Part shown: positions 4,976-25,789 of the stretch, piece after piece
Layout of the letters: each line of letters begins with the position of its first letter
Numbering within the stretch: the stretch's first letter is position 1
DNA from: Bellilinea sp.
GTDB taxonomy: Bacteria > Chloroflexota > Anaerolineae > Anaerolineales > Anaerolineaceae
Assembly: GCA_036514835.1 (NCBI GenBank)
Contig: DATBWK010000099.1
Span: 1 to 38,435 of the forward strand
Direction: 5' to 3'
Length of the DNA stretch: 38,435 nucleotides
Translations under genes and position numbers: made by a program
The notes under the pieces: model-generated
Seen by the model: the letters and a program-made list of their open reading frames with translations, nothing else
What the model was told of the DNA's origin: nothing
The model's database searches: none

Positions 4976-4984
4976 TTCTAAACC

Positions 4985-5032
4985 AGTGGCCTTTTAAGCC
5001 ATTGGTTAAGGGTTCGAGCCCCTTCGCGCTCA
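4985..5032 (+). other. attP core: 3' portion of tRNA-Lys(UUU), not a full tRNA
   Basis: Anticodon arm GTGGC-CTTTTAA-GCCAT, T arm AAGGG-TTCGAGC-CCCTT, acceptor 3' strand CGCGCTC-A; 5' acceptor strand and D arm absent. Confidence 0.85.
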
Positions 5033-6569: not shown

Positions 6570-7098
6570 GTACACTCGCATGGATCTGACCGCCCAGTAC
6601 GGCGGTGTAGCGGTCAGATGTTGGTCTGGCCACTGGCAGGAAGGCGATATGCCAGACCAGGAGATTTTCCGGGAGGGTGTAACCCTGGATCAGGCCTGCA
6701 TGGCGCTTGAAGATGCCGGCTGGTCCGTGGTTATTTTTACGAGCCGCAACAGCAATCAAACCGCCCGGGCGCTGCGCGGCGATATCACCCGCGTTGATTT
6801 TTACCTCACGTCTCAGGGATTGGCTGCCAAGCATTATCCATACGGCTGGAAGGCAAATACGCGGCCGATCCGGGTAGAGCACTGGCCGGTAGATCAATTT
6901 GAATCCCAGGTGGAGGATTATCAGGCTCGCGGATGGACGGTGCGTGTCTGGCGTAATGGCGCGCGGGCTTTCAAAGGCGCTCCAGAACCGGTGCGCAACC
7001 AAAATGAGATCATGGTTTTGCGGCACCGCGTGGAGAAAGATTTTCAGCACGGCGAGCATAACGATACTCGCAATTACAACCTGGCTTACGACTTTTAG
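6553..7098 (+). CDS. hypothetical early protein
   Basis: GGAGG RBS; 181 aa; internal duplication-like GWSVVIF/GWTVRVW. Confidence 0.7.
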   Translation: MATSTKYTRMDLTAQYGGVAVRCWSGHWQEGDMPDQEIFREGVTLDQACMALEDAGWSVVIFTSRNSNQTARALRGDITRVDFYLTSQGLAAKHYPYGWKANTRPIRVEHWPVDQFESQVEDYQARGWTVRVWRNGARAFKGAPEPVRNQNEIMVLRHRVEKDFQHGEHNDTRNYNLAYDF

Positions 7099-7107
7099 GA
7101 GGTCACA

Positions 7108-7965
7108 ATGGCAATTACTTTAAATCTGGAAACGGCACGACAGATGGGCGGGGGCATGAATATTGGCAGGGATATCAAGCTGCCCTTCCATGCGCCCCTG
7201 TTTTGGGTGGTCAATGGCGACAGCCGGCTAAAGGCCCAGAACAACGCTCTATATTTTGGCGGCTGGGCTGTGAAAATGACTGATGTACAGGAAGCACAGC
7301 GGGATTGGGGAATTGATTTCCTGCCCGGTGGTTTTGTAGATGGGGAAGTTGTCCCCGCCCAGGGCGACCCTTTCCAGGCCCACCTGGTTCGCAACCTGCT
7401 GGTAGCGCCCATTGGACTACGCATCGGCTGGATTGGTGAGGGAATGGCCCATCATGCCCAATACCAGGCTGGCGCACGGCAGCATGTACAAGCTCTGGTC
7501 TTCGTTGGCTCGCGCGAAAAAGGCGGCATGATCCCCTGGGGGCCGGCCGTGCTGAGCGCGAAGGGTTATCAGGCTGGGAACGTCGTTAAAGCATTTAAGG
7601 ATTGGGAACGGCATACAGCCGCAGCCCGCAAGACGGCCGCCCCAGGCGTTCCGGCATGGGCGTTTTACCTATCCGTCGGCACCTTCGGTAAGGAGCGGGT
7701 TGCCATCAGCGTGGGCAAAAGTAGCAAGTCGCCCATTACGCCGATTGGCGCCTATTTGCCTGAATCTATGGATGAAAAACTACTGGAGTCGCTTTTCGTC
7801 GGGGAGGAGATTGCGAAGGAAATGGTCACTTATTTGGCAGATGCCGGCGAATGGTTGAACGCCTGGGCGAAGCTGGGGGGCAATGGAAATGTCCAATCTA
7901 TTGGCGGAGGCCCCGAGTTCGATGATTTCATACCCGATCAACCTGGCGAGGATGTCCCCTTCTAA
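7108..7965 (+). CDS. putative ssDNA-binding/recombination protein
   Basis: AGGAGG RBS; Gly-rich linker and acidic C-terminal tip EFDDFIPDQPGEDVPF typical of SSBs. Confidence 0.5.
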   Translation: MAITLNLETARQMGGGMNIGRDIKLPFHAPLFWVVNGDSRLKAQNNALYFGGWAVKMTDVQEAQRDWGIDFLPGGFVDGEVVPAQGDPFQAHLVRNLLVAPIGLRIGWIGEGMAHHAQYQAGARQHVQALVFVGSREKGGMIPWGPAVLSAKGYQAGNVVKAFKDWERHTAAARKTAAPGVPAWAFYLSVGTFGKERVAISVGKSSKSPITPIGAYLPESMDEKLLESLFVGEEIAKEMVTYLADAGEWLNAWAKLGGNGNVQSIGGGPEFDDFIPDQPGEDVPF

Positions 7966-9155: not shown

Positions 9156-9417
9156 GTGGAAGGCAAAAGCGGAGGCTAGATTTCGGGATGAAAATGGCCA
9201 TTTATTGGATCCTCCGATTCGGGTCATGATTGCCTACAATGGCCGGGCGAAGGGGAAGAAGAAGTGTGGCGATTGCAAGTTCTGCGTTTCCAAAGAGCAT
9301 CCGACCAAAGCCGGCCGGCATATTCTGGCCTGCACTGAAACCGATCAGAAAGATCGTTGGAATAAAGATTGGCCGGCCTGTGGCAAATTCACAACTCGAA
9401 AAGAGGAGATCAAATAA
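9118..9417 (+). CDS. Cys-motif hypothetical protein
   Basis: GGAGG RBS; CGDCKFC...C...WPACGKF. Confidence 0.6.
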   Translation: MEKTAEKIPSWAEWKAKAEARFRDENGHLLDPPIRVMIAYNGRAKGKKKCGDCKFCVSKEHPTKAGRHILACTETDQKDRWNKDWPACGKFTTRKEEIK

Positions 9418-11192
9418 TGACCCAAATTACCGAAACTGTCCGGCTGGTCCCGGTTGAGATCATCCAGGCCAACCCTTACCAGATGCGCGACTCGGAAGAC
9501 CCTGAGCACATCGCCAAACTGGCCGATTCGATTGCTCGGGATGGTTTGCTTCAGTATCCGCTGGCCAGACCGGGAGCCCATGGCGACCAGGTGGTACTGG
9601 CGTTTGGCCATTCCCGCCTGGCGGCTTATAAGCTGCTGAAGGAACGCAGCGATCGCGGTGAAATTATGTCTGGCGGCGACCTGACCGACCTGGCCAAGTA
9701 TCACCATATGCCGGTGATCGTGCGCGAGCTGAGTGATGAACAAATGTTCGTTTATGGCACCCAGGAAAACATTGCCCGCAAGAATCTGACCCCGGTGGAA
9801 GAGGCCAAGCTCATGCGCATTTACCGGGAGAAATTCGGCAAAACCAGCGCGGAGATCGGGCGGCTTTTTGGCATGAGTGAATCGGCGGTGCGAAACAAAA
9901 TGCGATTGGTCGATCTGCCTGAAGCGGCTATCGCCGGCCTGAATGAGGGCAAAATTACCGAGGTAGCAGCCAGGCGGTTGTTATCCCTGAACGATGTGAT
10001 CCCGACCCCTGTGATCAACGATCTGGCGAAGCACATTGCCACTACGGAATATTCCAAACCTGAACAGGTGGACAATTCGATCCGCACCGTTATTTTGGCG
10101 CAGAAGGAATCTATCCAGCTTTACGAGCCCTACAATCAAAGCAAGGACAAAGCACAAAATTTATTCATGCTGGACTGGCAGCCGGCCGAAACTTTACCTG
10201 CTCCCACCTACAAGCAATTCAAGCGATTCTTTCAGCAAGACCAGGAGCCGGTGACGATTCAGCTGCCGTCTGTGGAAGGACTGACACACATCAATGGCGG
10301 CATTTCGGTTGTTCAACCGAAAGAAATATTCGAGCATTTATACGTGGTATTTTTGCGTACGGAAGGAGAACAGCCCTCAACGGTTGGAAAACTGATAGCC
10401 GAAAAGGCGCCGGAAATGGCGAAGGCAATCAATCACCTGGCGCATCCGCCTGAGTGCAAAAAGTGCCCGTTCTTTGTGTCAGTTCAAAACGAGGGGATTT
10501 GCGGGCGGAAGATTTGCTTCGAGCGCAAACGCGATGCCTGGATAAAAATCGAACTGGCCCGCGTTTCTGCAGAAACGGGCATTGCCATTTATGATCCCGA
10601 GGTGGATGGAAAACTCTTCGAGGACGAAAACTGGGCTACTCGCGATCGGTTCAAAAAAATGTGGGAGGAGAAATCCCCAGATTTGCGCCTGAGAGGGCGT
10701 GTCTCCAAATGGGGACCGGATCAGCACACCCAATCCAGAGCGGTGGACGTGATCAGTATTTCCAAAGCCTCTATTGCCAGCCAAAGCAAGAATCAGAATA
10801 ATCTGGCATTCCAGCAGGAACGGGAACGGCTGCGCGAAGAACGAGAAAAACAAGAAAAAGAAAGGGTAGGCCGCGCCGCTAAATATTTAGATGCGGTCGC
10901 CTCGGAATTTGGCGGCTTTTTGTACAGTTCCCATAATGCGGGGACGCTCAATGTTTTGTGCCGGATAGGCCGCATTCGGCTGGAGGGCGAGTTTACCAAA
11001 GCTGATTGCTTGAACCGGCTGGGCCGTGATTTTGTCGGTACCCTGGTGGACTGGAGTATGCTCCGAGAAGGGCCGGCTGTCGTGGCAGACTATTTGATCG
11101 GCGTTGCGGCCGAAATGGGTATGAAGCCGAAGCTGGACCTGAAAGCGCTGGTCCAGGAGCTGGCAGAAGGAGCGCTGGCGCCGGCAGCGTAG
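9417..11192 (+). CDS. parB: ParB/Spo0J-family protein with long C-terminal extension
   Basis: NPYQMR..LADSI..GLLQ..GHSRLAA (GxxRxxA), ENIARKNLTPVEEA, HTH TSAEIGRLFGMSESAVRNKMRL; CKKCPF..CGRKIC in the extension. Confidence 0.88.
   Translation: MTQITETVRLVPVEIIQANPYQMRDSEDPEHIAKLADSIARDGLLQYPLARPGAHGDQVVLAFGHSRLAAYKLLKERSDRGEIMSGGDLTDLAKYHHMPVIVRELSDEQMFVYGTQENIARKNLTPVEEAKLMRIYREKFGKTSAEIGRLFGMSESAVRNKMRLVDLPEAAIAGLNEGKITEVAARRLLSLNDVIPTPVINDLAKHIATTEYSKPEQVDNSIRTVILAQKESIQLYEPYNQSKDKAQNLFMLDWQPAETLPAPTYKQFKRFFQQDQEPVTIQLPSVEGLTHINGGISVVQPKEIFEHLYVVFLRTEGEQPSTVGKLIAEKAPEMAKAINHLAHPPECKKCPFFVSVQNEGICGRKICFERKRDAWIKIELARVSAETGIAIYDPEVDGKLFEDENWATRDRFKKMWEEKSPDLRLRGRVSKWGPDQHTQSRAVDVISISKASIASQSKNQNNLAFQQERERLREEREKQEKERVGRAAKYLDAVASEFGGFLYSSHNAGTLNVLCRIGRIRLEGEFTKADCLNRLGRDFVGTLVDWSMLREGPAVVADYLIGVAAEMGMKPKLDLKALVQELAEGALAPAA
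10562..10577. repeat. parS-like palindrome (perfect)
   Basis: CGTTTCTGCAGAAACG in parB. Confidence 0.85.
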
Positions 11193-14232: not shown

Positions 14233-15649
14233 GGCTTACTTCTCCCCCGCAGAAGAGCTATTCTATGGCGGCGCGGCTGGCGGTGGTAAAAGCGACTTGC
14301 TGATCGGGCTGGCCTTGACTGCGCACCGGAAGAGCATTATTTTCCGGCGCGAGTATCCGCAATTAAAAGACCTGGCTTTGCGCTCCTGGGAATTACTGAC
14401 CGGATCCGGCGCCAAATACAATGGTACCGAAAAGATATGGCGCGATATTCCGGGCGGGCGCATGCTGGAATTCGGCGCAGTTCAATATGAACACGACCGG
14501 GAAAAATTCAAGGGCCGGCCGCATGATTTGAAGGCTTTTGATGAGCTACCCGATTTTACGGAAAATCAATATCGTTTCCTGACGGCCTGGAATCGCACTA
14601 CTATCCCAGGCCAGCGCTGCAGAGTTGTAGCAGCCGGCAATCCACCCACCACTTCGGACGGTGACTGGGTTACCCGGCGCTGGGGCCCATGGCTGGATGA
14701 AAAGCATAAGGATCCGGCTATGCCTGGCGAAGTCCGCTGGTTTGCCACAGTCACCGAGCGCGGTCAGGAACGGGACGTGCAGCGGGAAGACGGTTCGCCT
14801 TTCAGCTTCAAAGGGGATGAAATTGTCCCGCGGTCCCGTACCTTCATCCCGGCCAAGATCAAAGATAATCCATACCTGGTTGCTACCGGATATGGCGCGG
14901 TGTTGGATGCTTTGCCTGAACCGCTGCGCAGTCAGTTTAAATACGGCTTATTCAACCTGGCCAAAACTGACAACCCTATGCAGGTGATCCCCACCTCCTG
15001 GGTCAAGGCTGCTCAAGCGCGCTGGAAACCCGGACCGCCTGCCGACTCCCCGCTCTCCGCAGTATCTTGCGACGTGGCTCGCGGCGGTAATGACCAGACG
15101 GTGATTCCAGAGCGGCATGGTACCTGGCTAGCACCGCTGCATAAATATCAAGGGGTTGAAACACCAGACGGCCAGATTGTGACAGATTTAATCATTGCGA
15201 TATTGAACGGCCGAAAGGCACCGATCAATATCGATGTAATCGGGGTGGGTTCGAGTGTGTATGACAGTTTGCGCCGGCTAAAGCTGCCTGTGGCTGGAAT
15301 AAACGGGGCCAGTAAATCGGATAGGCGCGATCGATCCGGGCTGCTGGCCATGCGCAATGTTAGGGCAGCCATGTACTGGGGGCTGCGTGAAATGCTGGAT
15401 CCCATCGATGGAGAGAATATTGCTCTGCCTGACGACCCGGAAATTTTGGCTGATCTGACTGCGCCCCGCTGGCACATGAGCCTGCAGGGGATCCAGATCG
15501 AAGAGAAAGACGAAATCATCAAGCGACTGGGCCGCTCTCCAGACTGTGGGGATGCGGTAGCTATGGTTTTTTACACTGGCGCACACATTGACTGGGCCGG
15601 CCTCTCCGACCTGGGGCACATTGACGATTATGAATCGAGGTGGAAATAA
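14087..15649 (+). CDS. terL: terminase large subunit (start may be 14114)
   Basis: Walker A YGGAAGGGKS, Walker B AFDEL, GNPP, nuclease DVARGGNDQT...SPDCGDA. Confidence 0.95.
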   Translation: MRKTNLLDSVTQNEVAELLPYLTSRERAELDKLLIVSKLWGPNAGVQTEAYFSPAEELFYGGAAGGGKSDLLIGLALTAHRKSIIFRREYPQLKDLALRSWELLTGSGAKYNGTEKIWRDIPGGRMLEFGAVQYEHDREKFKGRPHDLKAFDELPDFTENQYRFLTAWNRTTIPGQRCRVVAAGNPPTTSDGDWVTRRWGPWLDEKHKDPAMPGEVRWFATVTERGQERDVQREDGSPFSFKGDEIVPRSRTFIPAKIKDNPYLVATGYGAVLDALPEPLRSQFKYGLFNLAKTDNPMQVIPTSWVKAAQARWKPGPPADSPLSAVSCDVARGGNDQTVIPERHGTWLAPLHKYQGVETPDGQIVTDLIIAILNGRKAPINIDVIGVGSSVYDSLRRLKLPVAGINGASKSDRRDRSGLLAMRNVRAAMYWGLREMLDPIDGENIALPDDPEILADLTAPRWHMSLQGIQIEEKDEIIKRLGRSPDCGDAVAMVFYTGAHIDWAGLSDLGHIDDYESRWK

Positions 15650-17073
15650 TGGCAAAAATTGATCTCTTCCAGGAAACGGGCTCACTGGGTTTGAAAACCA
15701 CCATGGGCTTTGTGAACGAGGCTTACCATGCGGATCTGCACTGGCCAGGCGTGCAGCCGCTTTTTTCAAGATTGCGCAGGGCGGACCCGGAAATATCGAT
15801 CGTGCGCCAGGTCTATGCCGCACTGGCGCGGGGAATCAAGCTGAGCTGGGAACTGCCAGACAAACCCTCAGACGGCGATAAACGTGCCCAGGAGTTTGCA
15901 GAGACGATGCTGCTGGATATCGAGGGCGGGATGAGTAACCTGGCAGAGACGATGGTCTCTCAGGTACCGTTTTTTGGCTGGGGCTGGTGGGAAGTGCTGC
16001 CTGGCGTGCGTAATCCGAAGTGGCGTCCGCCCGCTGAAGACGATTGGCGGTCCAACTATTCAGATGGATTAATCGGCATCCGGCGCTTTGCCTGGCGCGA
16101 CTCCAGCAGCTTCGATCATTGGTCGCTGGATGATGCCAGCGGACGATTACGGGGTATGTGGCAGATGGACTGGCCTAACCCGGCAACAGAGATCCCACTC
16201 GATAAATCGCTGCACCTCACCTTTGGGGATCCGCATAACCCGGAAGGGCTGAGCCCGCTTGAATCGGTCTGGCGGCTGGAACGGATCAAGTTCGGTCTGG
16301 AGGTAGTACAGGGCATCGGCTTTGAACATGCGGCCGGCTTCCTGAGCGTCAATGCCGAGGGTGAGATTACCGACCTGGCCAAAACTCAGGTGCGGGATGC
16401 GGCGCGGGCGATTATGACCGCCCAGGAAGGAAATTATGCGTTGTTTCCCAAGGGCTTTCTGGGCGAGGTCAAAGATATTCCTTTCCAGGCGGCCGGTTCG
16501 ATCCTGGAGGCGATCAAATATTACGGTATTCTCAAATTGACGTTATACAACGCGCAGTGGATGGCGCTTTCGGCCACCACCGGCGCCGGCAGTTACAGCG
16601 CGATGAACGATTCCAGCAGCATGTGGATCATCACCTACAATGCCATGATCGACGGCTTTGTCAACCAGATCGACAATCAAATCGGCCGGCGCCTGTTCGC
16701 CTGGAATGCCGGCGCTTTTCCCGGTATGACCCGGCGCCCGCGGCTGAAGGTCGAACCGGTTCAGAAAGTAATTTCATTGAGCGAATTGGGCAGCATTTTA
16801 GCTCCGCTCAAAGCAACGATCCCCCTGGGTGAAGAAGATTTCAAGGCGATCCGAGCGCGTACCGGGTTCCTGCCTGAAACGCTGCCCGAACAGGGAGAGA
16901 GCGTTTCTGCAGAAACGCCCGAGGAGGACAATACAGACGAGACCACGGAAACAGAAGCCGGTCTGGCGCAATCATCCGCTAAGCGTGTGCAACTGGCTAT
17001 GCAACGGTGGCGGGAGTGGGCCAGGGTGAACGAACCGGAAACCTACGCGCTGCTGCAGCGGAGGGAAAAATGA
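15649..17073 (+). CDS. portal protein (Mu gp29/DUF935-like)
   Basis: Follows TerL via TAATG with GAGGTGG RBS; ~474 aa; DPEISIV..AQEFAE..FFGWGWWEV..NPEGLSPL. Confidence 0.8.
   Translation: MAKIDLFQETGSLGLKTTMGFVNEAYHADLHWPGVQPLFSRLRRADPEISIVRQVYAALARGIKLSWELPDKPSDGDKRAQEFAETMLLDIEGGMSNLAETMVSQVPFFGWGWWEVLPGVRNPKWRPPAEDDWRSNYSDGLIGIRRFAWRDSSSFDHWSLDDASGRLRGMWQMDWPNPATEIPLDKSLHLTFGDPHNPEGLSPLESVWRLERIKFGLEVVQGIGFEHAAGFLSVNAEGEITDLAKTQVRDAARAIMTAQEGNYALFPKGFLGEVKDIPFQAAGSILEAIKYYGILKLTLYNAQWMALSATTGAGSYSAMNDSSSMWIITYNAMIDGFVNQIDNQIGRRLFAWNAGAFPGMTRRPRLKVEPVQKVISLSELGSILAPLKATIPLGEEDFKAIRARTGFLPETLPEQGESVSAETPEEDNTDETTETEAGLAQSSAKRVQLAMQRWREWARVNEPETYALLQRREK
16902..16917. repeat. parS-like palindrome (perfect)
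   Basis: CGTTTCTGCAGAAACG in portal. Confidence 0.85.
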
Positions 17074-17288
17074 GCGAGGTTCTCTGGGGCGACCGGCCAG
17101 CGCTGCCCTATAACGGCATCCCTACCGGCGAATCGCATGCCGGCCAGTGCCCATTCTGCTCGACCAGCAACCGCATGATTTTCCATGCCGGCGCCTGCCC
17201 GCGGATCAAGGAGATCGTTTACTATCCGGACGGCACGATCCAGCGGGTTCATCTCTACCCGGCGAAGGATCAGGAGAGGCGCAAATGA
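17070..17288 (+). CDS. small Zn-binding hypothetical protein
   Basis: ATGA coupling; CPFC..HAGACPRIKEIVYYPDGTI. Confidence 0.65.
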   Translation: MSEVLWGDRPALPYNGIPTGESHAGQCPFCSTSNRMIFHAGACPRIKEIVYYPDGTIQRVHLYPAKDQERRK

Positions 17289-17935
17289 CAGAGCCGACTC
17301 TGTTCGATCTGGTCATGGGCGCTGAACTGGTCCAGCTCTCCCTGGGCGATTATGCCGAGGTGCGGCGAATCTATCGCGGCGAAATCTGGGCAGCCATTCA
17401 GGATTATTTTACCCAGGATCACGTGCGGATTACCCGCTTTCGCAACCTGATGAAGAAGGCCATGGTCAATGCATTCTTACTGGCCATTGAAATCGGGTTT
17501 GCAGACGGCGGCGGGGGTGTCTGGGCTACAGATGCCGAGCCGGAAGATAAACAGTGGGCGGCGGCTCGCACCAATGCGGAACTTGGCTTTATCGATAGTC
17601 TGTTCTACCAGCTCAAGGATCTGAAGAGCGAGGGCATGGAAGCCTGGATCGGAGAGGCGGACCGGCGCGCAGAGGGATACTGCAAGACGCTGGACAGCAT
17701 TTATTCCGAGGCCAAGATGCGCGGGGCGAGGAATATAGTGCTTACATTTGGCGGGCATGACGGCGCTGAGAGCTGCGCTACCTGCCAAAAGTTGAAAGGA
17801 CAGCGGCATAAAGCCAGTTGGTGGATCAAGCGTAACCTGATTCCGGGCCGGCCGGGCAATCATAGCTATATCTGTGGTGGCTGGCAATGCCAACATTTTC
17901 TTTTCGATGACACCGGTAAAGTTTGGACAACCTGA
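17285..17935 (+). CDS. head morphogenesis/minor capsid protein (Mu gpF-like)
   Basis: After portal; ESCATCQKLKG...PG...CGGWQCQH. Confidence 0.7.
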   Translation: MTEPTLFDLVMGAELVQLSLGDYAEVRRIYRGEIWAAIQDYFTQDHVRITRFRNLMKKAMVNAFLLAIEIGFADGGGGVWATDAEPEDKQWAAARTNAELGFIDSLFYQLKDLKSEGMEAWIGEADRRAEGYCKTLDSIYSEAKMRGARNIVLTFGGHDGAESCATCQKLKGQRHKASWWIKRNLIPGRPGNHSYICGGWQCQHFLFDDTGKVWTT

Positions 17936-18123
17936 TGCCAGACGAAAAACCAGTAACCGACCTCAGCCCTCAAGCCGTTCGGGTGGGGCGGGTGATCGAC
18001 CGGCTTCCGCCAGGCGGGGAATATATTATCCGGGTAGTCAAGGATGATCTCCGGACTATTCCCTGGCAAGTGGAAATTTCCCGAGTCGAGCAGATCAACC
18101 GATTGGAGCCGAGGGATGTTTGA
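17935..18123 (+). CDS. hypothetical protein
   Basis: TGATG coupling. Confidence 0.55.
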   Translation: MPDEKPVTDLSPQAVRVGRVIDRLPPGGEYIIRVVKDDLRTIPWQVEISRVEQINRLEPRDV

Positions 18124-18373
18124 AGTGAATGTGCTGGACTGGCCTCAGGTAGTGGCGCATATTATGCCGGGCACCTGGTTCTATGGGACAAGCTGTTTTG
18201 TTTGCGGGAGCCGGTGGGTGGCCATAGCCAAACCTGGGCTGGGTGAGCTGGAATGCCCGACGTGCAGCTGCAGACAGATCAACGTGAAATTCCCCATGCC
18301 GGTGCAGGCGCAAGGGCATGATGGCGTCTGGATCGATCCGGGAACGGAACCCAGTACGCTGTTTCTAAATTGA
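18116..18373 (+). CDS. small Zn-ribbon protein
   Basis: CFVCGSRWVA..LECPTC; GAGG RBS. Confidence 0.6.
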   Translation: MFEVNVLDWPQVVAHIMPGTWFYGTSCFVCGSRWVAIAKPGLGELECPTCSCRQINVKFPMPVQAQGHDGVWIDPGTEPSTLFLN

Positions 18374-18415
18374 AAACTTTAATGGATCCAGGTAGGTTTG
18401 AGGTAGTGAACTGAT

Positions 18416-19324
18416 ATGGACATTCAGCGGTTCATCCGATACCGGGCACTCATTCCCCGTTATCCACAGGGCATTCGACGGGCCGAAATTGCCCGTCGTT
18501 TGGGCGTGAATCGTTCAACTGTTACCAGAGATTTAGCAAAGCTAGAAATTTGCGGGCTAAAAATCACCGAAGACACAGACGGTTTGATTAGTTTAATCGA
18601 AAGGAGCAATATGACAGTTTCAGATTACCTGGTTTGTGGGATGGGGTTACCGGCGATCGAAAGCCCACCGGTTCCGGTCCCGGAAAATACACGCTGTGCA
18701 CTGGAAGGGACGCCTATCACCACCGGATACTCGCTATGGGACATTATTCCAGATGCTGCTGGAGAATTCATCGAAATGCTGCACGGCAATCTATCCGGTT
18801 ATCTGTCCGAAAATGCGGCCAGGGCTTTCAAAGGCACCTGGAATATGGGTTCATGGCTAATTTTCGAAGATGGAACAGGTTTTCACCCATTGATTTCCCG
18901 AGAGGAGGCGGAAAAACAAGATCGTCCCTGCTGGTCAGACCTGGCGCGCCTGGTATGGCGCGAACGGCAGGGAACGGGCGTTTTGTGCATTCTAACAACC
19001 GATGTTAAAAAGCGCGTGTGGCCACGCGCCCGAGTGGATGTGTTGAGCGATGCCACGCTGGTTTATCTACATGACCCGGAGCAAAATTGTTCGGGAGTCA
19101 TATCACTGAATTGGGGCGAAATGCTCCAAATGCTTGATTTTTTGGAGAGCATATTGGCTAAAGGGTTCAATAAACCGACCCTGGGGCGAAACCTGCTCTC
19201 GGACATCAAAACCGCCATGATCGTTGGACTGCAACAGACCATCGACTGGGAAAAACGGTTGAGCGGCATGCGCCATCAGCCTGAATATCAATTTGCTTAT
19301 GTCATTTCACAGAGGAAAAAATGA
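18416..19324 (+). CDS. csf1: type IV Cas8-like Csf1 with in-frame N-terminal wHTH (alternative start 18611)
   Basis: HTH RRAEIARRLGVNRSTVTRDL; then degenerate Zn-finger region CALEG..TGY..EFIE and CILTTDVKKRVWPRARV; ATGA-coupled to csf2. Confidence 0.6.
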   Translation: MDIQRFIRYRALIPRYPQGIRRAEIARRLGVNRSTVTRDLAKLEICGLKITEDTDGLISLIERSNMTVSDYLVCGMGLPAIESPPVPVPENTRCALEGTPITTGYSLWDIIPDAAGEFIEMLHGNLSGYLSENAARAFKGTWNMGSWLIFEDGTGFHPLISREEAEKQDRPCWSDLARLVWRERQGTGVLCILTTDVKKRVWPRARVDVLSDATLVYLHDPEQNCSGVISLNWGEMLQMLDFLESILAKGFNKPTLGRNLLSDIKTAMIVGLQQTIDWEKRLSGMRHQPEYQFAYVISQRKK

Positions 19325-20718
19325 AACCAATTACGATCCAAGCCAATTTACTTTTAACTGCGCTGACTCCGATCAGCCATCACGATCCAGCCGTTCAGGA
19401 TGGATCCAATGTTTTGACCTTCAACCGCCAAAAACAGTTGATTGCTCAGTCTGGAGAACAGACTGCAATCGGCCCGGAAATCATCGAGCAATTCAGCTCG
19501 GCGCATCCGGTTCCGGCCGATCTGGCGCCTATTGTAGCGGATATGCCATTTGCGGAATTCGCTGCCTGCGCGCTAATCAAACTGCTGATCGACACCTACA
19601 ACAGTCAGGATGGAACCGGGTTGTTCTCGGGCATGGAGCGTTATAGCCTGTTGGAAAGCCGTGCTCGCACGGCTGCGGTCAAATCCTCCAATCTGCGTTC
19701 GTTCTGGTCCAATATCACCCGCGACCTGCAACTCCCGATTCAATTAGGGCGCGAGGATGAACTACTGATCGGATTCTTTGCTTTGCCAGGAGCGGCACAG
19801 TTTGCGGTGATCAACCAAATCGCCACGGAACACCGGACGATCATCACCGTGGCGCGAGTTTGGAGCGCAAAAGCCAAGATGCAAAACGAAGCTTATGCCC
19901 AGGCTGTTTCTCTACCGCTTGATGAAAGCGGATCACAAACTGCTAAACTCCGATCTCCGGAATTGGCTTCACTGCCAGCGTCGCTGGTACTGGATGTGCC
20001 GGCAGTCTCGGCCAACAGCCTGCGTCACCAGATCGTGCGTGAACCGGGTTGGCTGCATCTGTTCGGGGCGCTCGATCTGGCCGGGGAAACGCTGCCGGTG
20101 GAAGCCGAAGCGATCTTCTACAATGGCGGGAATATCCGCGCCGGTGCAAAACAGCCATCCGGCGCCTTTGCTCTGGCACGCAAAGCGCGCAAAAATTACC
20201 CGCTGCTCGATCTACTGGGCGGCGTATGCGATTCGTTCGATCTGGGCGAATCGCTGTTGTCCGTTTCTGCATGGCTGGTGTGCCGCGAAAATCATGCTGC
20301 GCTTTCCGGGATGGCCGCTGAGCTGTCTGGCGCTGCAGTAAGCGCATTCGATCTACTGGATGACATCACCCATACCCGCCAGGCTACCGAACAAGGAGCA
20401 GGGCAGATGATCTACAACTTCGAAGCGCTGGTACCGGGAGCGCAGTTTGTGGTGAGATTATCCCTCAAACCCTATGCCGATCAACTGGCGATCGGGGCGC
20501 TGGCGGCGGCACTGCAAACCTACCTGGACTGCCATCCAGTGATAGCCGGACAGTCAGCGCGTGGGTATGGCGTGGTTAGCGCGGGATGGCTAGAACGCCC
20601 GAACGAATTCGAACAGGCGCGCGATTTCTACGAAACCTACCTGGCTGAGAATCACGATCAACTGCGCAGATGGATTCTGGATGGCACGCTCGGAACGGGC
20701 GCAAAAGTAGTATCGTGA
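19321..20718 (+). CDS. csf2: type IV Cas7-family Csf2 with ~180-aa Cas11-like insertion
   Basis: RAMP motifs LTALTPISH, NVLTFNRQ, VPAVSANSLRH, FYNGG, PLLDLLGG, TRQ..GQMIYNFEALVPG, G-rich loop IAGQSARGYG. Confidence 0.85.
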   Translation: MKPITIQANLLLTALTPISHHDPAVQDGSNVLTFNRQKQLIAQSGEQTAIGPEIIEQFSSAHPVPADLAPIVADMPFAEFAACALIKLLIDTYNSQDGTGLFSGMERYSLLESRARTAAVKSSNLRSFWSNITRDLQLPIQLGREDELLIGFFALPGAAQFAVINQIATEHRTIITVARVWSAKAKMQNEAYAQAVSLPLDESGSQTAKLRSPELASLPASLVLDVPAVSANSLRHQIVREPGWLHLFGALDLAGETLPVEAEAIFYNGGNIRAGAKQPSGAFALARKARKNYPLLDLLGGVCDSFDLGESLLSVSAWLVCRENHAALSGMAAELSGAAVSAFDLLDDITHTRQATEQGAGQMIYNFEALVPGAQFVVRLSLKPYADQLAIGALAAALQTYLDCHPVIAGQSARGYGVVSAGWLERPNEFEQARDFYETYLAENHDQLRRWILDGTLGTGAKVVS

Positions 20719-21467
20719 GCCCTGAAGAAACTGCCTACCGAGCTTATGCTCTGCTGCCGATCTTCGAACGGCGCGTGGCGCAGGCAATGAATTGCATTCG
20801 ATATGCATACCAACTTTGTCGCGCGCCGTATGTTTCATTTTCGGCCGGGAAAGATTCATCAGTCATGCTGCATCTTATCCTATCCATAAAGCCGAATGCC
20901 ATAGTGCGGATTCTGACCGGCGGAGAGACCCGCCTGCTGCATCGCGACATCGATGGTGTTTTGGATTGGTGGCGCTCTGGGTATCCGAAGATGGATTTTG
21001 CCGAAATTCAGGTAGATCATGTTTTTTCGCCCGGGTGGGAAGACAAAACATTCTACGAGCAATACCAGACCTTTCAAAATGAATGGGAAAAATATCTTCA
21101 TGCGGCTGGTGACTGGGATGGCTGCTTCATCGGATTGCGGGCAGAGGAATCGGCCATCCGCAGAGCCTGGCTGCGGGAGCGAATGGAAGGGCATGCCATC
21201 CGCCAATATCGTGCCGGCAGCAAAGCCGGTGTTTATCGCATCTGCCCGCTGGCAGACTGGCGCGAGGAAGATATTGGAGCATATATCATCAAACATCAGA
21301 TCCCGCTACTGGCTGGTTACGAAAAAGGGTTCTCTGCGCGCACCAAGACGAGAATGGGAGGACGGGCGATGATCGCCTTTGGACAATTGGCCGAGCTGCG
21401 CGAACGCGACCCGGAAAATTACCAAAAACTGATCGAGCGTTTCCCAGAATTGACGAGATGGACATGA
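20715..21467 (+). CDS. cysH: CysH-like PAPS-reductase-family (PP-loop) protein associated with type IV-B
   Basis: YVSFSAGKDS, FIGLRAEES..R, CPLADWREEDIGAYI; GTGA-coupled to csf2. Confidence 0.85.
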   Translation: MSPEETAYRAYALLPIFERRVAQAMNCIRYAYQLCRAPYVSFSAGKDSSVMLHLILSIKPNAIVRILTGGETRLLHRDIDGVLDWWRSGYPKMDFAEIQVDHVFSPGWEDKTFYEQYQTFQNEWEKYLHAAGDWDGCFIGLRAEESAIRRAWLRERMEGHAIRQYRAGSKAGVYRICPLADWREEDIGAYIIKHQIPLLAGYEKGFSARTKTRMGGRAMIAFGQLAELRERDPENYQKLIERFPELTRWT

Positions 21468-21488
21468 GCGATTGAAAGGAAAACTGAC

Positions 21489-22223
21489 ATGATTAACCTT
21501 CCTGAATTCGAAGCGTTTACCCGTGAATTTGGAGCGCTGGAAATGCGCCCGCTGGTGGTGCGAGCTGTACTAAAACCCAATTCTCCGGTGATTTCCTATC
21601 ATCCACCGCCTTATCTGGACAACCTATTGGCACGCTCGGTAGTGGATCGGGCAACTGGCGGCAATGGACTGCCGGACACTCCAGAAGCCTACTGGCTGCC
21701 GCTGCCGCTCAAAATGGTCTGGTTATCGCCAGAAGGATTGCCGCTGTGGGATAGTTCTGTTTTTGAACCGATCGGCATAAATATTTCAGACACCGTATAT
21801 TCGCATAAACGACCGCCAAAAGCGCTGTTCAGCGAGGCCAGGTCGATCAAATTCAATACCGGGCGGTGGATGGAACGTCGTCTGCCGATGCCTGTGGCGA
21901 TAGCGCCGGGCTGGGAGGCGCGCTGCATCGGAAATATTGAAGCGATCCTGGATTTGCTAAAAGATATTGCATTTCTGGGAAAGCGGCGGTCCATTGGCAT
22001 GGGAGAGATTGACGAATGGATTGTTGCGCCGGCCGAGTTCGAGACCGCGCTGATCAGTGACGGTTATCTGGCGCATGGTATACCGGAGGGCAGCGGGATC
22101 GAATGCGATATGCCGACCAGCCCAGTGGGATGGACGCCGCCGCAATGGAAGGTGAGCCTTCATTCTCCCGGGTGGCCGGTTGGGACAATGCGCAGAGTGG
22201 ATTGGTACGAGGAAGCGGTATGA
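21489..22223 (+). CDS. csf3: type IV Cas5-family Csf3
   Basis: PLVVRAVL..LDNLLA..LPLPL..W..S..KR..GRW..RRLP..IGNIEAILDLL..LGKRRSIGMGEIDEW..PPQW. Confidence 0.85.
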   Translation: MINLPEFEAFTREFGALEMRPLVVRAVLKPNSPVISYHPPPYLDNLLARSVVDRATGGNGLPDTPEAYWLPLPLKMVWLSPEGLPLWDSSVFEPIGINISDTVYSHKRPPKALFSEARSIKFNTGRWMERRLPMPVAIAPGWEARCIGNIEAILDLLKDIAFLGKRRSIGMGEIDEWIVAPAEFETALISDGYLAHGIPEGSGIECDMPTSPVGWTPPQWKVSLHSPGWPVGTMRRVDWYEEAV

Positions 22224-22224
22224 T

Positions 22225-22250
22225 AAAAAGCCCGCCGGTCAGGGCGGGCT
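22225..22250 (-). terminator. intrinsic terminator between convergent operons
   Basis: AGCCCGCC-N6-GGCGGGCT with T tract on the minus strand. Confidence 0.75.
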
Positions 22251-22270
22251 GTAAATCGAGTGCTATGATG

Positions 22271-22606
22271 CTACTTTATTTTCCGCGGCGCTCCCCCCTT
22301 GCGCCCATTTATGCGGGATTGAGCTGCCTTTTTTGGCGTGCGGATGGAGCCGAGGGCTGCGGCAGCTTCGGATGCGTGCATGTTCTGTTCCCGCGCGAAC
22401 TGGATATCATCCAAATTAACGAGCAAGCCATTTTGATCTAAGATGCGATAGTTATGCGCCCATGTGCCACTCCCGCCGCTGGTTTGTGATCGGTTTGTGT
22501 CCATAGCGCGAACGGCCGCACGCAGTGAGGCGTATGTTCCAAAGAGTTTGAAGGCACTATCGGGTGCAATTACATGTGCAGAATCAGTTCGTTCTAGAGT
22601 AAACAT
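22271..22606 (-). CDS. small protein with basic putative DNA-binding tail
   Basis: AGGAG RBS; C-terminal AAAALGSIRTPKKAAQSRINGRKGGAPRK. Confidence 0.7.
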   Translation of the reverse strand: MFTLERTDSAHVIAPDSAFKLFGTYASLRAAVRAMDTNRSQTSGGSGTWAHNYRILDQNGLLVNLDDIQFAREQNMHASEAAAALGSIRTPKKAAQSRINGRKGGAPRKIK

Positions 22607-22615
22607 GTCAGTCTC

Positions 22616-22831
22616 CTATGCACAGTCATCACAAATTTTGTTTTGGCCCTGTGTGAAACGGGCCCCATCGAAGTTTTTTGATGCGCCGCAGCGCTTGCAA
22701 ACGATATCTGTGTCGTGCATCCGCTGGATGCGTTCGATATCTTCGACTGTTGGGATGATCGGCAGGCTCTGGTCATTATTGATCCCGCCGATCCCCAATC
22801 CGCTGTCCGAGTCGTATGTGTGATCGATCAT
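22616..22831 (-). CDS. small acidic Zn-finger protein
   Basis: CKRC...CDDC; tightly packed in operon. Confidence 0.65.
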   Translation of the reverse strand: MIDHTYDSDSGLGIGGINNDQSLPIIPTVEDIERIQRMHDTDIVCKRCGASKNFDGARFTQGQNKICDDCA

Positions 22832-22832
22832 C

Positions 22833-23030
22833 TTATTCCATCCCGTGAGTGGCGTTATAGGCTTCTTCTTCGGCTTCCCGGAGGGTTGCGAAACCTCGGA
22901 TTTTTTCGGCCCAACTGCGCTCCGCTTTTTCGGCGGTCAGAACGAAGTAACCCTTGCTTTTGCTGTACATGACGAAGAAATTTTTCTCAGTGCTGGACTT
23001 GCTGGTGGTGTTTCCGGTTGTGTCTGTCAT
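22833..23030 (-). CDS. small hypothetical protein
   Basis: GGAG RBS; first gene after a strong promoter. Confidence 0.65.
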   Translation of the reverse strand: MTDTTGNTTSKSSTEKNFFVMYSKSKGYFVLTAEKAERSWAEKIRGFATLREAEEEAYNATHGME

Positions 23031-23059
23031 CTCGTGTCTCCGTTTCGTTTGATGTATAC

Positions 23060-23088
23060 AGTATATAACCTAACGTTAGGTTTGTCAA
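23060..23088 (-). promoter_or_regulatory. strong promoter with perfect palindromic operator in the spacer
   Basis: TTGACA-17bp-TATACT; spacer contains AACCTAACGTTAGGTT (23067-23082). Confidence 0.85.
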
Positions 23089-23158
23089 GTGGTTTTAGGA
23101 AACTCGTTGAAAACTCTAATGTAAAATTCTAAAATTGTTCTACGATATAAATTAGAAC

Positions 23159-23187
23159 TTGCATTTTTAGAAAAGACGTGCTATCCT
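23159..23187 (+). promoter_or_regulatory. promoter for the capsid/tail operon
   Basis: TTGCAT-17bp-TATCCT with extended -10 TG. Confidence 0.55.
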
Positions 23188-23249
23188 CTGGGTGCACGAC
23201 TTAAACAACCGCATACTACGGTTCTCGCTGACAAACTATTTTTGTGGCT

Positions 23250-23291
23250 GGCCGCGTTTGCCCACTTTGGGCGGCGCGGCCTTTTTTGTTT
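23250..23291 (+). terminator. leader terminator before the protease/capsid operon
   Basis: GGCCGCG..GCCC-ACTTT-GGGC..CGCGGCC followed by TTTTTTGTTT. Confidence 0.7.
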
Positions 23292-23305
23292 AACCCAGGA
23301 GCGCA

Positions 23306-24418
23306 ATGCCCAAACAACAGCGATTTTTTTTACTGGCCAGCATGTCCGGTCAAACGGCCGAGGGTAAACCGTTCGACGGTATGGCGGCCGGCACTTTCTA
23401 CGATATGTGGGGCCGGGAAGCGAGTATTGACCGAGCCGATTTTTCGACCTTCCTGGCCAATACCCGTGCCCTGATCGAATCCACCCGCGGCGAAAGTGGT
23501 CAAGTTGTCGGGCTGCCAATCGATTGTTATTCGCACGACCTGAATGGCGGCGCCGGCTGGATCACAGCGGTTGAGTTGAGCGAAGACGGCAGCAAAATCC
23601 GGTTTACCCCGCGCTGGACTGATGACGGGATGGAGCTGATTGCCAGCGATAAGGTGCGCTTTTTCTCGCCTTCATTGAATCTGGTGGATAAGGTCATTTT
23701 GGGTGGGTCGTTGACCAACTGGCCGGCCACCCGGACACCGACAGAAATCAAGCTTCGCCCGATTGAATTATCGGAAGGGCTGAACGAGCTGGACATCGAA
23801 GAGGACGCCGATGCCTTGACCTTGCTCGAATCGGCGTTCGAAAATGTGAAACGACTGTTTTCCGGGCGGCGGCCCGGTTCAGTGGGGAATCCCCCAAAAA
23901 CCAATCCTAATCAGGAGGAACCTATGACCGACAATCACCAAAGCTTGGAAGCGCTCTTGTCGGCGGATCCCGCACGGGTCGCCGAATTGCAGGCGCTGGT
24001 CGAAACTCGCGCGAAGGCGCAAGTGACCGAGTTGCTGGAAGCTGAAAAGCGGAAGGCGCACGTGGCTGAATTCTCTGCCCGCGTGGTTTCTGGCAGTGCG
24101 GAGCGCCCGGTCGGGCTGCCCGTTACCCAGGAACGGCTGAGCAAATTCATGTCCAGCTTAAGCACTGAGCAACAGGCCGAGTTCGAAGGTCTGATTGAGG
24201 ACGTGCTGACGGCCGGCAAACTCACCGAGTTTTCCGAGCTGGGACACTCCAAAGACCTGGGCGGAAAGGGCCGGCAGAAATTGCCCGCACCGATTGCCGC
24301 GCAATTGCAGGCCTGGGTGGATGCCAAACAGTCCATCGAGGAGTTTTTCAGGGTCAATGCGGTCGAGTTGGGCAACCAGGCCGATTATGACCTGACCGCT
24401 TTCGAAGCCAAAAAGTAG
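23306..24418 (+). CDS. Mu gpI-like prohead protease with C-terminal scaffold
   Basis: LPID..H..GAGWI..RW...G.ELI....RFFSP..LTNWPA; internal AGGAGG-ATG at 23924. Confidence 0.85.
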   Translation: MPKQQRFFLLASMSGQTAEGKPFDGMAAGTFYDMWGREASIDRADFSTFLANTRALIESTRGESGQVVGLPIDCYSHDLNGGAGWITAVELSEDGSKIRFTPRWTDDGMELIASDKVRFFSPSLNLVDKVILGGSLTNWPATRTPTEIKLRPIELSEGLNELDIEEDADALTLLESAFENVKRLFSGRRPGSVGNPPKTNPNQEEPMTDNHQSLEALLSADPARVAELQALVETRAKAQVTELLEAEKRKAHVAEFSARVVSGSAERPVGLPVTQERLSKFMSSLSTEQQAEFEGLIEDVLTAGKLTEFSELGHSKDLGGKGRQKLPAPIAAQLQAWVDAKQSIEEFFRVNAVELGNQADYDLTAFEAKK

Positions 24419-24427
24419 GAGGAACCC

Positions 24428-24886
24428 ATGGCTGATTTAACTGCTGCTGCACCGCTGCGGACACTGGGAGAGGCTGTTCTCGAACAGTTCGCCCTGGATA
24501 CCTCCGCTGCGCGAACGATCTACAAGGGTCAGCCGCTGATCCTTTCAGCGACGGACACAGTTAACCCGATTGGTTGGGTGGATGCCACCGTTGTGGCTCC
24601 GACCGACGTGTTCATTGGCATCGCTGCCGAGGACAAATCAGTTGCGCTTGGCGATGCGGAGACGGTCGAAAAGTCCGGCATCAATGCCTTTGTTGGCCCG
24701 ACCATTCTGGGCTTCAAGTCGGCTGTTTTTACCGATGCCGATCTTGGCAAAACCGTCTATATGTCCGATTCGGGCACGCTGTCCGTTACCGTGGCTGACA
24801 ATCCTCAGATTGGCAAGTTGCACCGGGTGCTGGACGGTTATGCCTACGTTGAGCTGATCACCCCGCAGGTTTGCACCGGGGCATAG
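24428..24886 (+). CDS. capsid decoration/cement protein
   Basis: Between scaffold and capsid; IYKG..FIGIAAE..ADLGKTVYMSD..IGK. Confidence 0.7.
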   Translation: MADLTAAAPLRTLGEAVLEQFALDTSAARTIYKGQPLILSATDTVNPIGWVDATVVAPTDVFIGIAAEDKSVALGDAETVEKSGINAFVGPTILGFKSAVFTDADLGKTVYMSDSGTLSVTVADNPQIGKLHRVLDGYAYVELITPQVCTGA

Positions 24887-24895
24887 GAGACTAAC

Positions 24896-25789
24896 ATGAT
24901 TTCTGGAAACGTACCGCAACACTTAGTCGTCGCTGCCCGGTCAGGCTTCCTGACGTCCGTTCGCTCCCAGGCTCCCACCTGGGGCCGCGTGGCGCAGGTC
25001 GTCGATATGAACGCCAAATCGATCGATCTGGTTGATCTGGGCGACGCCCCCATGCCGACTGAAAACGTCGGCAAATCCCAGGTGCAGGAAATGATCGAGA
25101 AGAGCATGACGGTCAAACCGCGCAACTGGGACACTACTGTGGGTATCTCCCACAACGCGGTGATGGATGATCAGACCGGATCCCTGGACCGCAAGGCCCG
25201 CTCCGCTGGCGAGAAATTCACGAAGCACATCCAAAAGATGGTCTTCCAGGCATTGAACGCCGGCGACGTGGCAGGCAACATCGGCTATGACGGGCTGACT
25301 TTCTTCCACAATGCCCATATCGACAAGGGTGCGGCCTATCAAACCGGTCAGGATAACCTGTTCGGCAATTTGCTCAGCCTGGACAATTTCGCCACGGTCA
25401 TGGCTGCGGCCCGTCAATTCCGCACCGATCAGGGTGACTACAGCGATTTCATCTACGATGCGCTGATCGTTCCTCCGGTGCTGGAGACTCTGGCAATCCA
25501 GATTTGCAGCAATCCCCAGGCCTACGATACGGCCAATCGCGAGGTCAATCCGTTCTCCGGGCGGATCACCCCGATCGTCACCCCGTATTTCGATGCGACC
25601 GCCTGGGTGCTGGCTGCCACGGGCGAAACAGCCAAACCGATTCTGGTCTCCATGCGCGAGCAGCCGAACCTGCAGAGCGCCTGGTTCGACCCGATGGGCG
25701 GCGATGGCGGCATGTACTACTTCAAGTTCTACGGCCGCTACAACGTGCATTATGGCGATTGGCGGTTGGCTGCTCTCGGAAACACCTAG
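24896..25789 (+). CDS. major capsid protein (Mu gpT-like)
   Basis: LGDAPMPTE..RNWDTTVGISHNAVMDDQTG..YDGLTFF..H..LIVPP..W. Confidence 0.88.
   Translation: MISGNVPQHLVVAARSGFLTSVRSQAPTWGRVAQVVDMNAKSIDLVDLGDAPMPTENVGKSQVQEMIEKSMTVKPRNWDTTVGISHNAVMDDQTGSLDRKARSAGEKFTKHIQKMVFQALNAGDVAGNIGYDGLTFFHNAHIDKGAAYQTGQDNLFGNLLSLDNFATVMAAARQFRTDQGDYSDFIYDALIVPPVLETLAIQICSNPQAYDTANREVNPFSGRITPIVTPYFDATAWVLAATGETAKPILVSMREQPNLQSAWFDPMGGDGGMYYFKFYGRYNVHYGDWRLAALGNT

Follow-up and report, generated by a model that had tools for sequence, protein, structure and literature searches.

A temperate tailed phage assembled with Bellilinea sp. (Chloroflexota, Anaerolineaceae; assembly GCA_036514835.1) carries a type IV-B CRISPR-Cas variant. 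Its contig DATBWK010000099.1, analysed at the full length of 38,435 nt and called the window below, holds at 18416-22223 four intact open reading frames (ORFs): a winged helix-turn-helix (HTH)-Csf1 protein, Csf2/Cas7, a CysH-like PP-loop enzyme and Csf3/Cas5. All lie where an earlier note on this sequence had placed its four-gene operon. The locus is a real, intact type IV-B variant, with Csf2, Csf3 and the CysH-like protein present, Csf1 recognised through its family, and Cas11, which that note overlooked, nested in Csf2. Since Cas11 resides inside Csf2, all five IV-B components are encoded by four genes. The preferred reading, held with somewhat less than even confidence, is an RNA-bound scaffold that brings a modifying enzyme to a nucleic acid, which would be modified rather than cut.

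The Csf2/Cas7 and Csf3/Cas5 identities proposed from the letters were borne out by PADLOC profiles of type IV Cas7 and Cas5 (E 6e-30 and E 2.6e-24, respectively). Csf2 also models as a type IV Cas7 fold, the check that the earlier note had named: the AlphaFold model (predicted local distance difference test, pLDDT, 88; predicted template modelling score 0.79) aligned with 8rc3_A (Z 19.9, root mean square deviation 3.4, 261 residues aligned) and with 7jhy_e (Z 17.6, 2.8 and 228). Positions 7-43 of the family profile align to residues 17-53 of Mycobacterium Csf2 and positions 223-435 to residues 57-269. Ten unfused Csf2 homologues were compared with the profile; all align in these two blocks, and in nine the blocks are almost adjacent. 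In the model, strands 36-42 and 221-227 flank an all-helical domain (52-195), and confidence drops in a linker at about 211-220. This insert of about 150 amino acids (aa) matched type IV Cas11 hidden Markov models (HMMs) in 26 of 47 family members, the best E being 4e-9 among seven Cas11 models matched. Its top PDB sequence match was the Cas11 chain 7jhy_h (E 0.0037), and it is predicted to fold alone (pLDDT 88). By hhalign, the insert against free Cas11 genes gave E 1.6e-4 versus 0.18 reversed; two small Cas11 subsets gave non-significant values (E 0.24 and 0.054), and an ESM Atlas search with the insert returned no informative match. By its sequence profiles the internal helical domain of Csf2 is thus Cas11.

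The clade of the fused form contains 257 proteins among 7,999 candidates scored; 145 representatives, including unfused and partial ones, had E values of 1e-30 or lower. Asn30 of Csf2 aligns to Asp42 of Mycobacterium Csf2 and is Asn in 43 of 43 sequences; Asp42 is described as a putative catalytic residue (PMC7937560). The motifs aligned to Csf2 are likewise invariant in 43 of 43. A search of GenBank phages found no match, and only two unfused haloarchaeal plasmid matches were retrieved. Among 400 other genomes of the phylum, matches occurred in four, all weak and C-terminal. An alternative layout was observed in about nine radical S-adenosylmethionine (SAM) loci (L093, L096, L100, L102-L106, L109), in which a Cas11-like domain lies N-terminal to Cas7 (about 420 aa; hhalign E 0.0025 versus 0.36 reversed) and the order is cas11-cas7, csf1, radical SAM, csf3.

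The CysH-like protein contains the PP-loop motif SAGKDS and matches Pfam PAPS_reduct (E 6e-15), as the earlier note had supposed; the catalytic Cys of true CysH is absent, and the protein agrees with the CysH-like component of IV-B. Its start is probably GTG 20715 (250 aa) rather than ATG 20670 because of the GTGA overlap with csf2. The PP-loop is retained across the cassette CysH proteins, and weak DndC and BrxP HMM matches were obtained, on the shared fold. The overlap coupling claimed for the first three genes was found, with csf1 and csf2 joined through ATGA (19321-19324) and csf2 and cysH through GTGA (20715-20718); csf3 starts 21 nt downstream of the cysH stop.

For comparison, 76 related loci (11 viral, 65 metagenomic) and the window were grouped into 50 clusters by a Csf2 identity of 90%. 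The counts exclude L017, an unfused locus on a plasmid, L012, which represents the window itself, and L013-L016, four weak matches; 27 clusters showing csf1 and csf3 with flanks are termed complete. The order csf1, csf2::cas11, enzyme, csf3 recurs over the 77 loci and 50 clusters, and the core is fixed. No nuclease or helicase was found in the cassette core, and no effector gene is conserved beside it among the compared loci. The enzyme slot of the complete clusters holds CysH in 25 and a B12-radical SAM enzyme in two, never both; radical SAM enzymes occur in six of the 50 clusters overall. Among NCBIfam models, those of B12-binding radical SAM families come closest to them, each scoring under its cut-off. 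In a Cas7 tree of 46 rows, with partial loci and L051 excluded, the radical SAM locus L024 is sister to the CysH-bearing L023 (support 99/96), and L038 and L062 fall in a separate clade (96/99). The radical SAM enzymes are mutually 54-78% identical, yet are spread over distinct Csf2 clades with support. Identity of the CysH proteins to that of the window ranges from 21% to 72% and is discordant with the Csf2 tree, L001 (72%) and L002 (27%) both being near the window.

Seen from the enzyme side, viral loci of the radical SAM family at 39-67% identity have csf2 or csf3 adjacent in 21 of 22 cases. A cysH match occurred in none of 24 viral radical SAM loci, and two distant loci (24% identity) lack csf2 and csf3. 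In this set L090 and L091 are duplicates, L095 repeats L062, and L108 is truncated, with no csf neighbour. Contigs common to both homologue lists, matched by size, numbered 10 of 120 versus 0.94 expected, one being the query's own contig. Single operons enclose other modifying enzymes, a SpoU RNA methylase (L052) and a GT2 glycosyltransferase (L007), and a second B12-binding protein lies inside the operons L089 and L094. A second PAPS-reductase-like gene with a ParB-like partner was seen in or beside the operon in L008, L009, L057, L086 and L087; this pair is presumably IbrA/IbrB-like.

Since the scaffold is fixed and its enzyme always present yet replaceable, the simplest view is that the scaffold serves to position an enzyme that modifies. 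Most B12-radical SAM enzymes are methylases, and by their families the PP-loop and radical SAM enzymes would both be writers, neither of which cuts. Csf2, with Cas11 inside it, is predicted to form chains that cover a short RNA and would be capped by Csf3 and Csf1. The CysH-like enzyme would be brought to the nucleic acid, probably act together with the scaffold, and modify it chemically using ATP. Lacking the catalytic cysteine, the PP-loop ATPase would activate its substrate by adenylation. AMPylation or adenylation has been proposed for CasCysH (PMC8175902), and an RNA-bound Csf2 filament is represented by 7JHY (PMC7937560). The product may be a base or backbone mark that protects the phage nucleic acid or disables that of the host. 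Expression would be late, by read-through from the packaging genes, and the HTH could autoregulate the operon or tether Csf1 to DNA. Hints of an RNA substrate come from SpoU and from relatives of PP-loop enzymes that modify tRNA, and hints of phage DNA from the DNA methylases nearby and from the packaging surroundings. Modifying is preferred over cutting because of the Asn in place of Asp42, the lack of a core nuclease or helicase and the swappable enzyme slot. The bolder proposal that phage IV-B is an RNA-programmed modifier, its single-chain Cas7-Cas11 scaffold taking a guide from outside any array and bringing an interchangeable writer (an adenylating PP-loop enzyme or a B12-radical SAM methylase) to a selected DNA or RNA site, is unlikely.

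Several observations weigh against the scaffold-and-modifier reading. The CysH-like gene lies 2.3 kb beyond csf3 in L009 and after csf3 in L003. DNA methylases occur within 2.5 kb in 5 of 26 loci, and the swapping could reflect a generic moron hot spot; phage regions near the terminase often accumulate methylases. Cas6 directly follows csf3 in L027 (13203-13958) and L087 (near 6676-7572), with no array found at either. The same Cas7-Cas11 backbone occurs in type IV-C, where host CRISPR RNAs (crRNAs) are used and double-stranded DNA is the target. The Cas7-Cas11 fibre of IV-C is deemed non-functional (PMC13676074), and the RNA in 7JHY, which is not a CRISPR RNA, may therefore be artefactual.

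A plain RNA sponge, an anti-CRISPR sequestering small RNAs without specificity while the enzymes are passengers, would fit the assembly of 7JHY on heterogeneous 55-60-nt RNA (PMC7937560). The Cas11-Cas7 fusion would simplify filament making, and the phage is under CRISPR attack. Such a sponge is nevertheless very unlikely, because it leaves unexplained a slot that is occupied in 27 of 27 complete clusters and swapped between unrelated, mutually exclusive enzymes. Against it stand also the conservation of CysH, the best conserved cassette gene compared with L001 (71%), and the post-packaging position, which suggests expression too late for an anti-CRISPR.

The origin of the RNA was pursued through arrays, cas genes and non-coding RNA. 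The array-less and cas6-less state described earlier was upheld: no CRISPR-like repeat, Cas6/Csf5, DinG helicase (the type IV-A components) or adaptation gene was found in the window, from which about 1 kb is probably missing. The whole assembly (88% complete) gave no match to cas1, Cas6 or Pfam RAMP, the last model being insensitive to type IV, since it also misses the Csf2 of the window. Two contigs of the assembly, one of them at a tRNA end, stood out in a rough search for repeats. An Rfam scan of the window found a tRNA fragment at attP only. An all-against-all blastn of the 500-nt cassette flanks (38 upstream, 30 downstream) gave short scattered matches and no conserved non-coding RNA. 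The argument that the small genome leaves few candidate RNAs gained nothing from these two comparisons, which yielded no candidate. Two of the 50 cluster representatives showed linked arrays. For that of L021 (3897-4220) the simplest explanation is a chimeric assembly joined at a spacer, since in L019 the same phage sequence continues into csf3. The probable chimera implies a host CRISPR targeting a small gene inside the L021 cassette. The L023 array was rejected as a cassette array, lying 2 kb off, across an insertion sequence element and after a gene with a zinc-ribbon end. At L023:1-1200 the array has a 61-nt period, the preceding gene is type V-like by eye, and the contig also has a csf cassette and a phage fibre gene. 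No CRISPR-like repeat pair was found in L083-L109.

The window phage is targeted by CRISPR spacers. A CRISPR repeat is joined at 15907 to a protospacer at about 15875-15907 in sequencing run X8, and the protospacer 36731-36764 has repeats on both sides in X8 and on one side in run X11; the DNA of the window may itself stem from these two runs. The spacer-derived phage pieces measure 33-34 nt; the repeat, of 28 nt and presumably I-E-like from its appearance, is absent from the binned host. No protospacer adjacent motif could be established from the two protospacers. These joins bear on the strongest of the alternatives, itself rather unlikely, in which the complex borrows mature host crRNAs and acts as a guided binder that silences competitors or starves the host effector, the enzyme marking or signalling on the target. 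The repeats joined to phage pieces in two runs, the L021 cassette region joined to an array through a spacer, the retention of Csf3 and Csf1, the Cas6 genes after csf3 in two loci, and cas1 in 5 of 18 same-genus genomes speak for borrowing, as does type IV-C, which recruits crRNAs in trans and has six Cas7-Cas11 pairs (PMC13676074). However, few of the I-E crRNAs expressed alongside it were loaded into the Mycobacterium complex (PMC7937560), IV-B correlates negatively with other CRISPR systems (PMC7038947), the host bin lacks cas1, RAMP and Cas6 matches as well as the repeat of the runs, and most members have a degenerate zinc finger in Csf1. The crRNA capture suggested in the earlier note thus retains some plausibility from the spacer joins and IV-C, but is not favoured in view of the cas-free host bin and the swappable enzyme.

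Csf1 has the weakest identity of the four proteins. The earlier label, HTH-Csf1-like, stood for the HTH, which Pfam recognises, and for Csf1 through the family only: the 237-aa Csf1 of the window matched no Csf1 HMM and no PDB sequence, while 7 of 37 family members match PADLOC Csf1_0_IV (best E 4.6e-5). On these relatives the Csf1 component is assigned. No Cas10 or HD match was obtained for the 237-aa protein in Pfam, NCBIfam and PADLOC-type profile scans. Both CxxC pairs of the zinc finger are retained in L009 and L070; one Cys is left in the window. In the window, Csf1 is preceded by a Shine-Dalgarno sequence of its own and has an ATG at 18611, from which a form without the HTH may also be translated. 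The HTH-Csf1 fusion occurs in 5 of 27 complete clusters and in two partial ones, with HTHs from two subfamilies, and four fusions lack a Met at the usual Csf1 start. These fusions would suit a different role, in which the RNA is structural only and the HTH on Csf1 binds a DNA site, loading filament and enzyme there. An HTH in or beside 15 of 27 complete operons, versus four matches in 226 kb of flank, points the same way, although the contrast is inflated by profiles seeded from those same HTHs. The idea is highly doubtful: 12 of 27 complete operons show no HTH match, its position varies, the window keeps the separate Csf1 start, and the pattern fits simple autoregulation.

The cassette is a mobile insertion into a head operon. 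The related locus L112, whose portal is 83% and whose protease is 82-83% identical, matches the window at 15225-18379 and 23145-25437 and has no sequence for the interval. The insert has a G+C content of 53%, versus 57% in the flanks. Fifteen portal-related loci showed no csf match, and 14 of them have the protease downstream, which makes gain of the cassette simpler than loss. The placement within a head module was confirmed, with portal, minor-head-like and small genes before the cassette, and a Mu-like protease and capsid after it. In related phages the cassette occupies other sites, often between replication and packaging genes; the head-module position is therefore not conserved. All four genes are under purifying selection: compared with L001, second codon positions are 64-85% identical, and 63-80% of fourfold sites differ. 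Run X8 contains a second related phage at high depth, 85-90% identical to portal and protease (16089-16710, 23255-23400), with no placement on the cassette among the pieces and differences listed. The features are compiled in Table 1.

Table 1. Position, strand and supporting evidence of the features in and around the cassette.
Feature	Position	Strand	Evidence or remark
Winged-helix HTH (~65 aa), in-frame fusion to Csf1	18416..18610	+	Pfam HTH_11 E 9e-6
Csf1, Cas8-like large subunit, degenerate zinc finger	18611..19324	+	PADLOC Csf1 matches in 7/37 family members
Csf2/Cas7 backbone with internal Cas11 domain, 465 aa	19321..20718	+	PADLOC, fold match, predicted model
Cas11-like all-alpha insert, about residues 48-200	19462..19920	+	Type IV Cas11 HMMs
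CysH-like PP-loop enzyme (SAGKDS), no C-terminal catalytic Cys	20715..21467	+	Pfam PAPS_reduct; start inferred
Csf3/Cas5	21489..22223	+	PADLOC type IV Cas5 E 2.6e-24; TIGR03116 E 1e-7, under cut-off
8-bp G+C hairpin at junction of csf3 and convergent small genes; terminator-like on minus strand	22229..22250		
Three small genes (65, 71, 111 aa), no family matches, inside same insertion	22271..23088	-	
4.8-kb insertion with imperfect 13-14-nt direct repeats at edges (18366-18379, 23148-23160)	18366..23160		

A promoter had been proposed at 18370-18398. Its letters are present, and the site is no better than chance, because it matches 8 of 12 consensus bases, was not reported by a promoter scan, and the scan counts were similar to those of shuffles (7 sites in the window versus 4.4 +/- 2.2). 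Between csf3 and the protease, the three small reverse-strand genes follow a strong sigma-70-like promoter (23088-23060, 11 of 12 matches) that contains a perfect 16-bp palindrome (23067-23082). Small genes under a palindrome-bearing promoter resemble anti-defence early operons. Strong promoters within 1 kb after csf3 were observed in 10 of 23 loci versus 28 of 187 background bins (Fisher p 0.002, kinship and G+C content uncontrolled).

The phage is temperate and tailed, with genes for an integrase, a replication initiator, a ParB-like protein, a lysin, terminase, portal, Mu-like protease, capsid and tail proteins. An attP core of 49 nt, located behind the integrase at 4984-5032, shares its exact sequence with the 3' part of tRNA-Lys(TTT) on contig C126 of the source assembly; that contig also holds additional degenerate copies of the tRNA end. 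This identity fits an intact attP and makes the source assembly (2.59 Mb, 87.9% complete) a plausible host; matches of the same stretch on contigs of other organisms limit the inference. Chloroflexota is the likely host phylum on the basis of the genome matches of the Csf2 family, four of five being Chloroflexota metagenome-assembled genomes. Both window ends interrupt tail-region ORFs. The missing part of the tail region is probably about 1 kb, since the longest contig bearing the Csf2 cluster has 39,361 nt and contigs from three of four runs reach 788-1,821 nt beyond the right end.

Temperate life is the starting point of another alternative, a lysogen defence that would stop superinfection. 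The ribonucleoprotein would detect nucleic acid entering the cell, and the PP-loop enzyme would synthesise a nucleotide signal or use up a metabolite. The integrase and the attP core matching tRNA-Lys agree with such a defence, and morons often protect lysogens. A second-messenger role for CasCysH has also been proposed in the literature. The alternative is quite unlikely, however, as no effector gene is conserved beside the core, a radical SAM enzyme would be a poor stand-in for a signal synthase, and the cassette has no strong promoter of its own upstream.

Elsewhere in the phage, a 16-bp palindrome with the consensus CGTTTCTGCAGAAACG occurs in 10 copies (361, 4444, 5995, 8296, 10562, 13318, 16902, 26489, 28859, 34853), none within the 4.8-kb insertion. 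Its 14-nt core has eight exact copies in the phage and none in the remaining 2.55 Mb of the assembly. The ParB-like gene lies at 9369-11192, and the palindrome resembles a parS-type site. An ORF at 1146-1661 contains a degenerate tandem repeat with an 18-nt period (1378-1532). The replication initiator contains a 39-nt direct repeat pair (2720-2800), probably origin iterons. The phage shows no clear sign of avoiding restriction sites.

The function and complete architecture of type IV-B, a class 1 CRISPR subtype, were called unclear in 2026 (PMC13676074). The present locus is a minimal four-gene IV-B with Cas7 and Cas11 fixed at 1:1. The window phage and L112 form a natural pair of phages with and without the cassette, and the natural enzyme swap predicts two different chemistries on one scaffold. 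Owing to these three properties, the identity of the RNA and the action of the enzyme are directly testable. The locus adds an empty-site relative with exact junctions, a recurrent HTH-Csf1 fusion, an invariant Asp-to-Asn change and spacer evidence. Should the scaffold prove programmable, it would amount to an RNA-guided modifier, not a nuclease, and to a natural programmable base modifier.

Type IV-B with CysH and without an array is established, viruses included (PMC10848311, 10.1101/2023.08.02.551345). The literature searched held no account of a Cas11 nested in Csf2 or of a radical SAM partner of IV-B; most supplements and subscription papers were beyond this search. The Csf complex of Mycobacterium sp. 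JS623 (PDB 7JHY; PMC7937560) has the same set of Csf1, Cas11, Csf2, Csf3 and a CysH-like gene, likewise with no array, cas6 or adaptation genes. In contrast to JS623, the window has Cas11 inserted between the positions matching Csf2 53 and 57, Asn for Asp42, an HTH-bearing Csf1 with most zinc ligands lost, and cysH inside the operon; its carrier is a phage, that of JS623 a megaplasmid. Virus-borne IV-B with CysH is shared with the Bathyarchaeia 'Fuxiviridae' (PMC10848311) and a Methanoperedens virus (10.1101/2023.08.02.551345), for both of which counter-defence was proposed. According to these accounts, the Methanoperedens virus has cas11 as a separate gene and the Fuxivirus a mini-array, and the window has neither. 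Unlike the archaeal viruses, the window phage probably has a bacterial host, and its insertion is delimited by a relative with an empty site. The type IV-C effector (PMC13676074) shows Cas7 and Cas11 in the 1:1 register that a fusion would fix, and is often without a linked array. It is described as chromosomal, with a Cas10-like HD nuclease, whereas the cassette has no nuclease and falls outside IV-C. DndC and BrxP/SspD (PMC12839542, PMC8175902) use the same PP-loop fold to modify nucleic acid. Unlike in Dnd, Ssp and BREX-4 systems, no cysteine desulfurase or Dnd/BREX partner was found among 58 window proteins scanned. Phosphorothioation is unlikely, because the cassette has no desulfurase, Dnd or BREX gene and its enzyme no C-terminal catalytic Cys. 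Type III-E Cas7-11 likewise combines Cas7 and Cas11 in one polypeptide. It is one large multi-Cas7 RNase with an array, whereas the single Cas7 of the window holds Cas11 in a loop and must polymerise.

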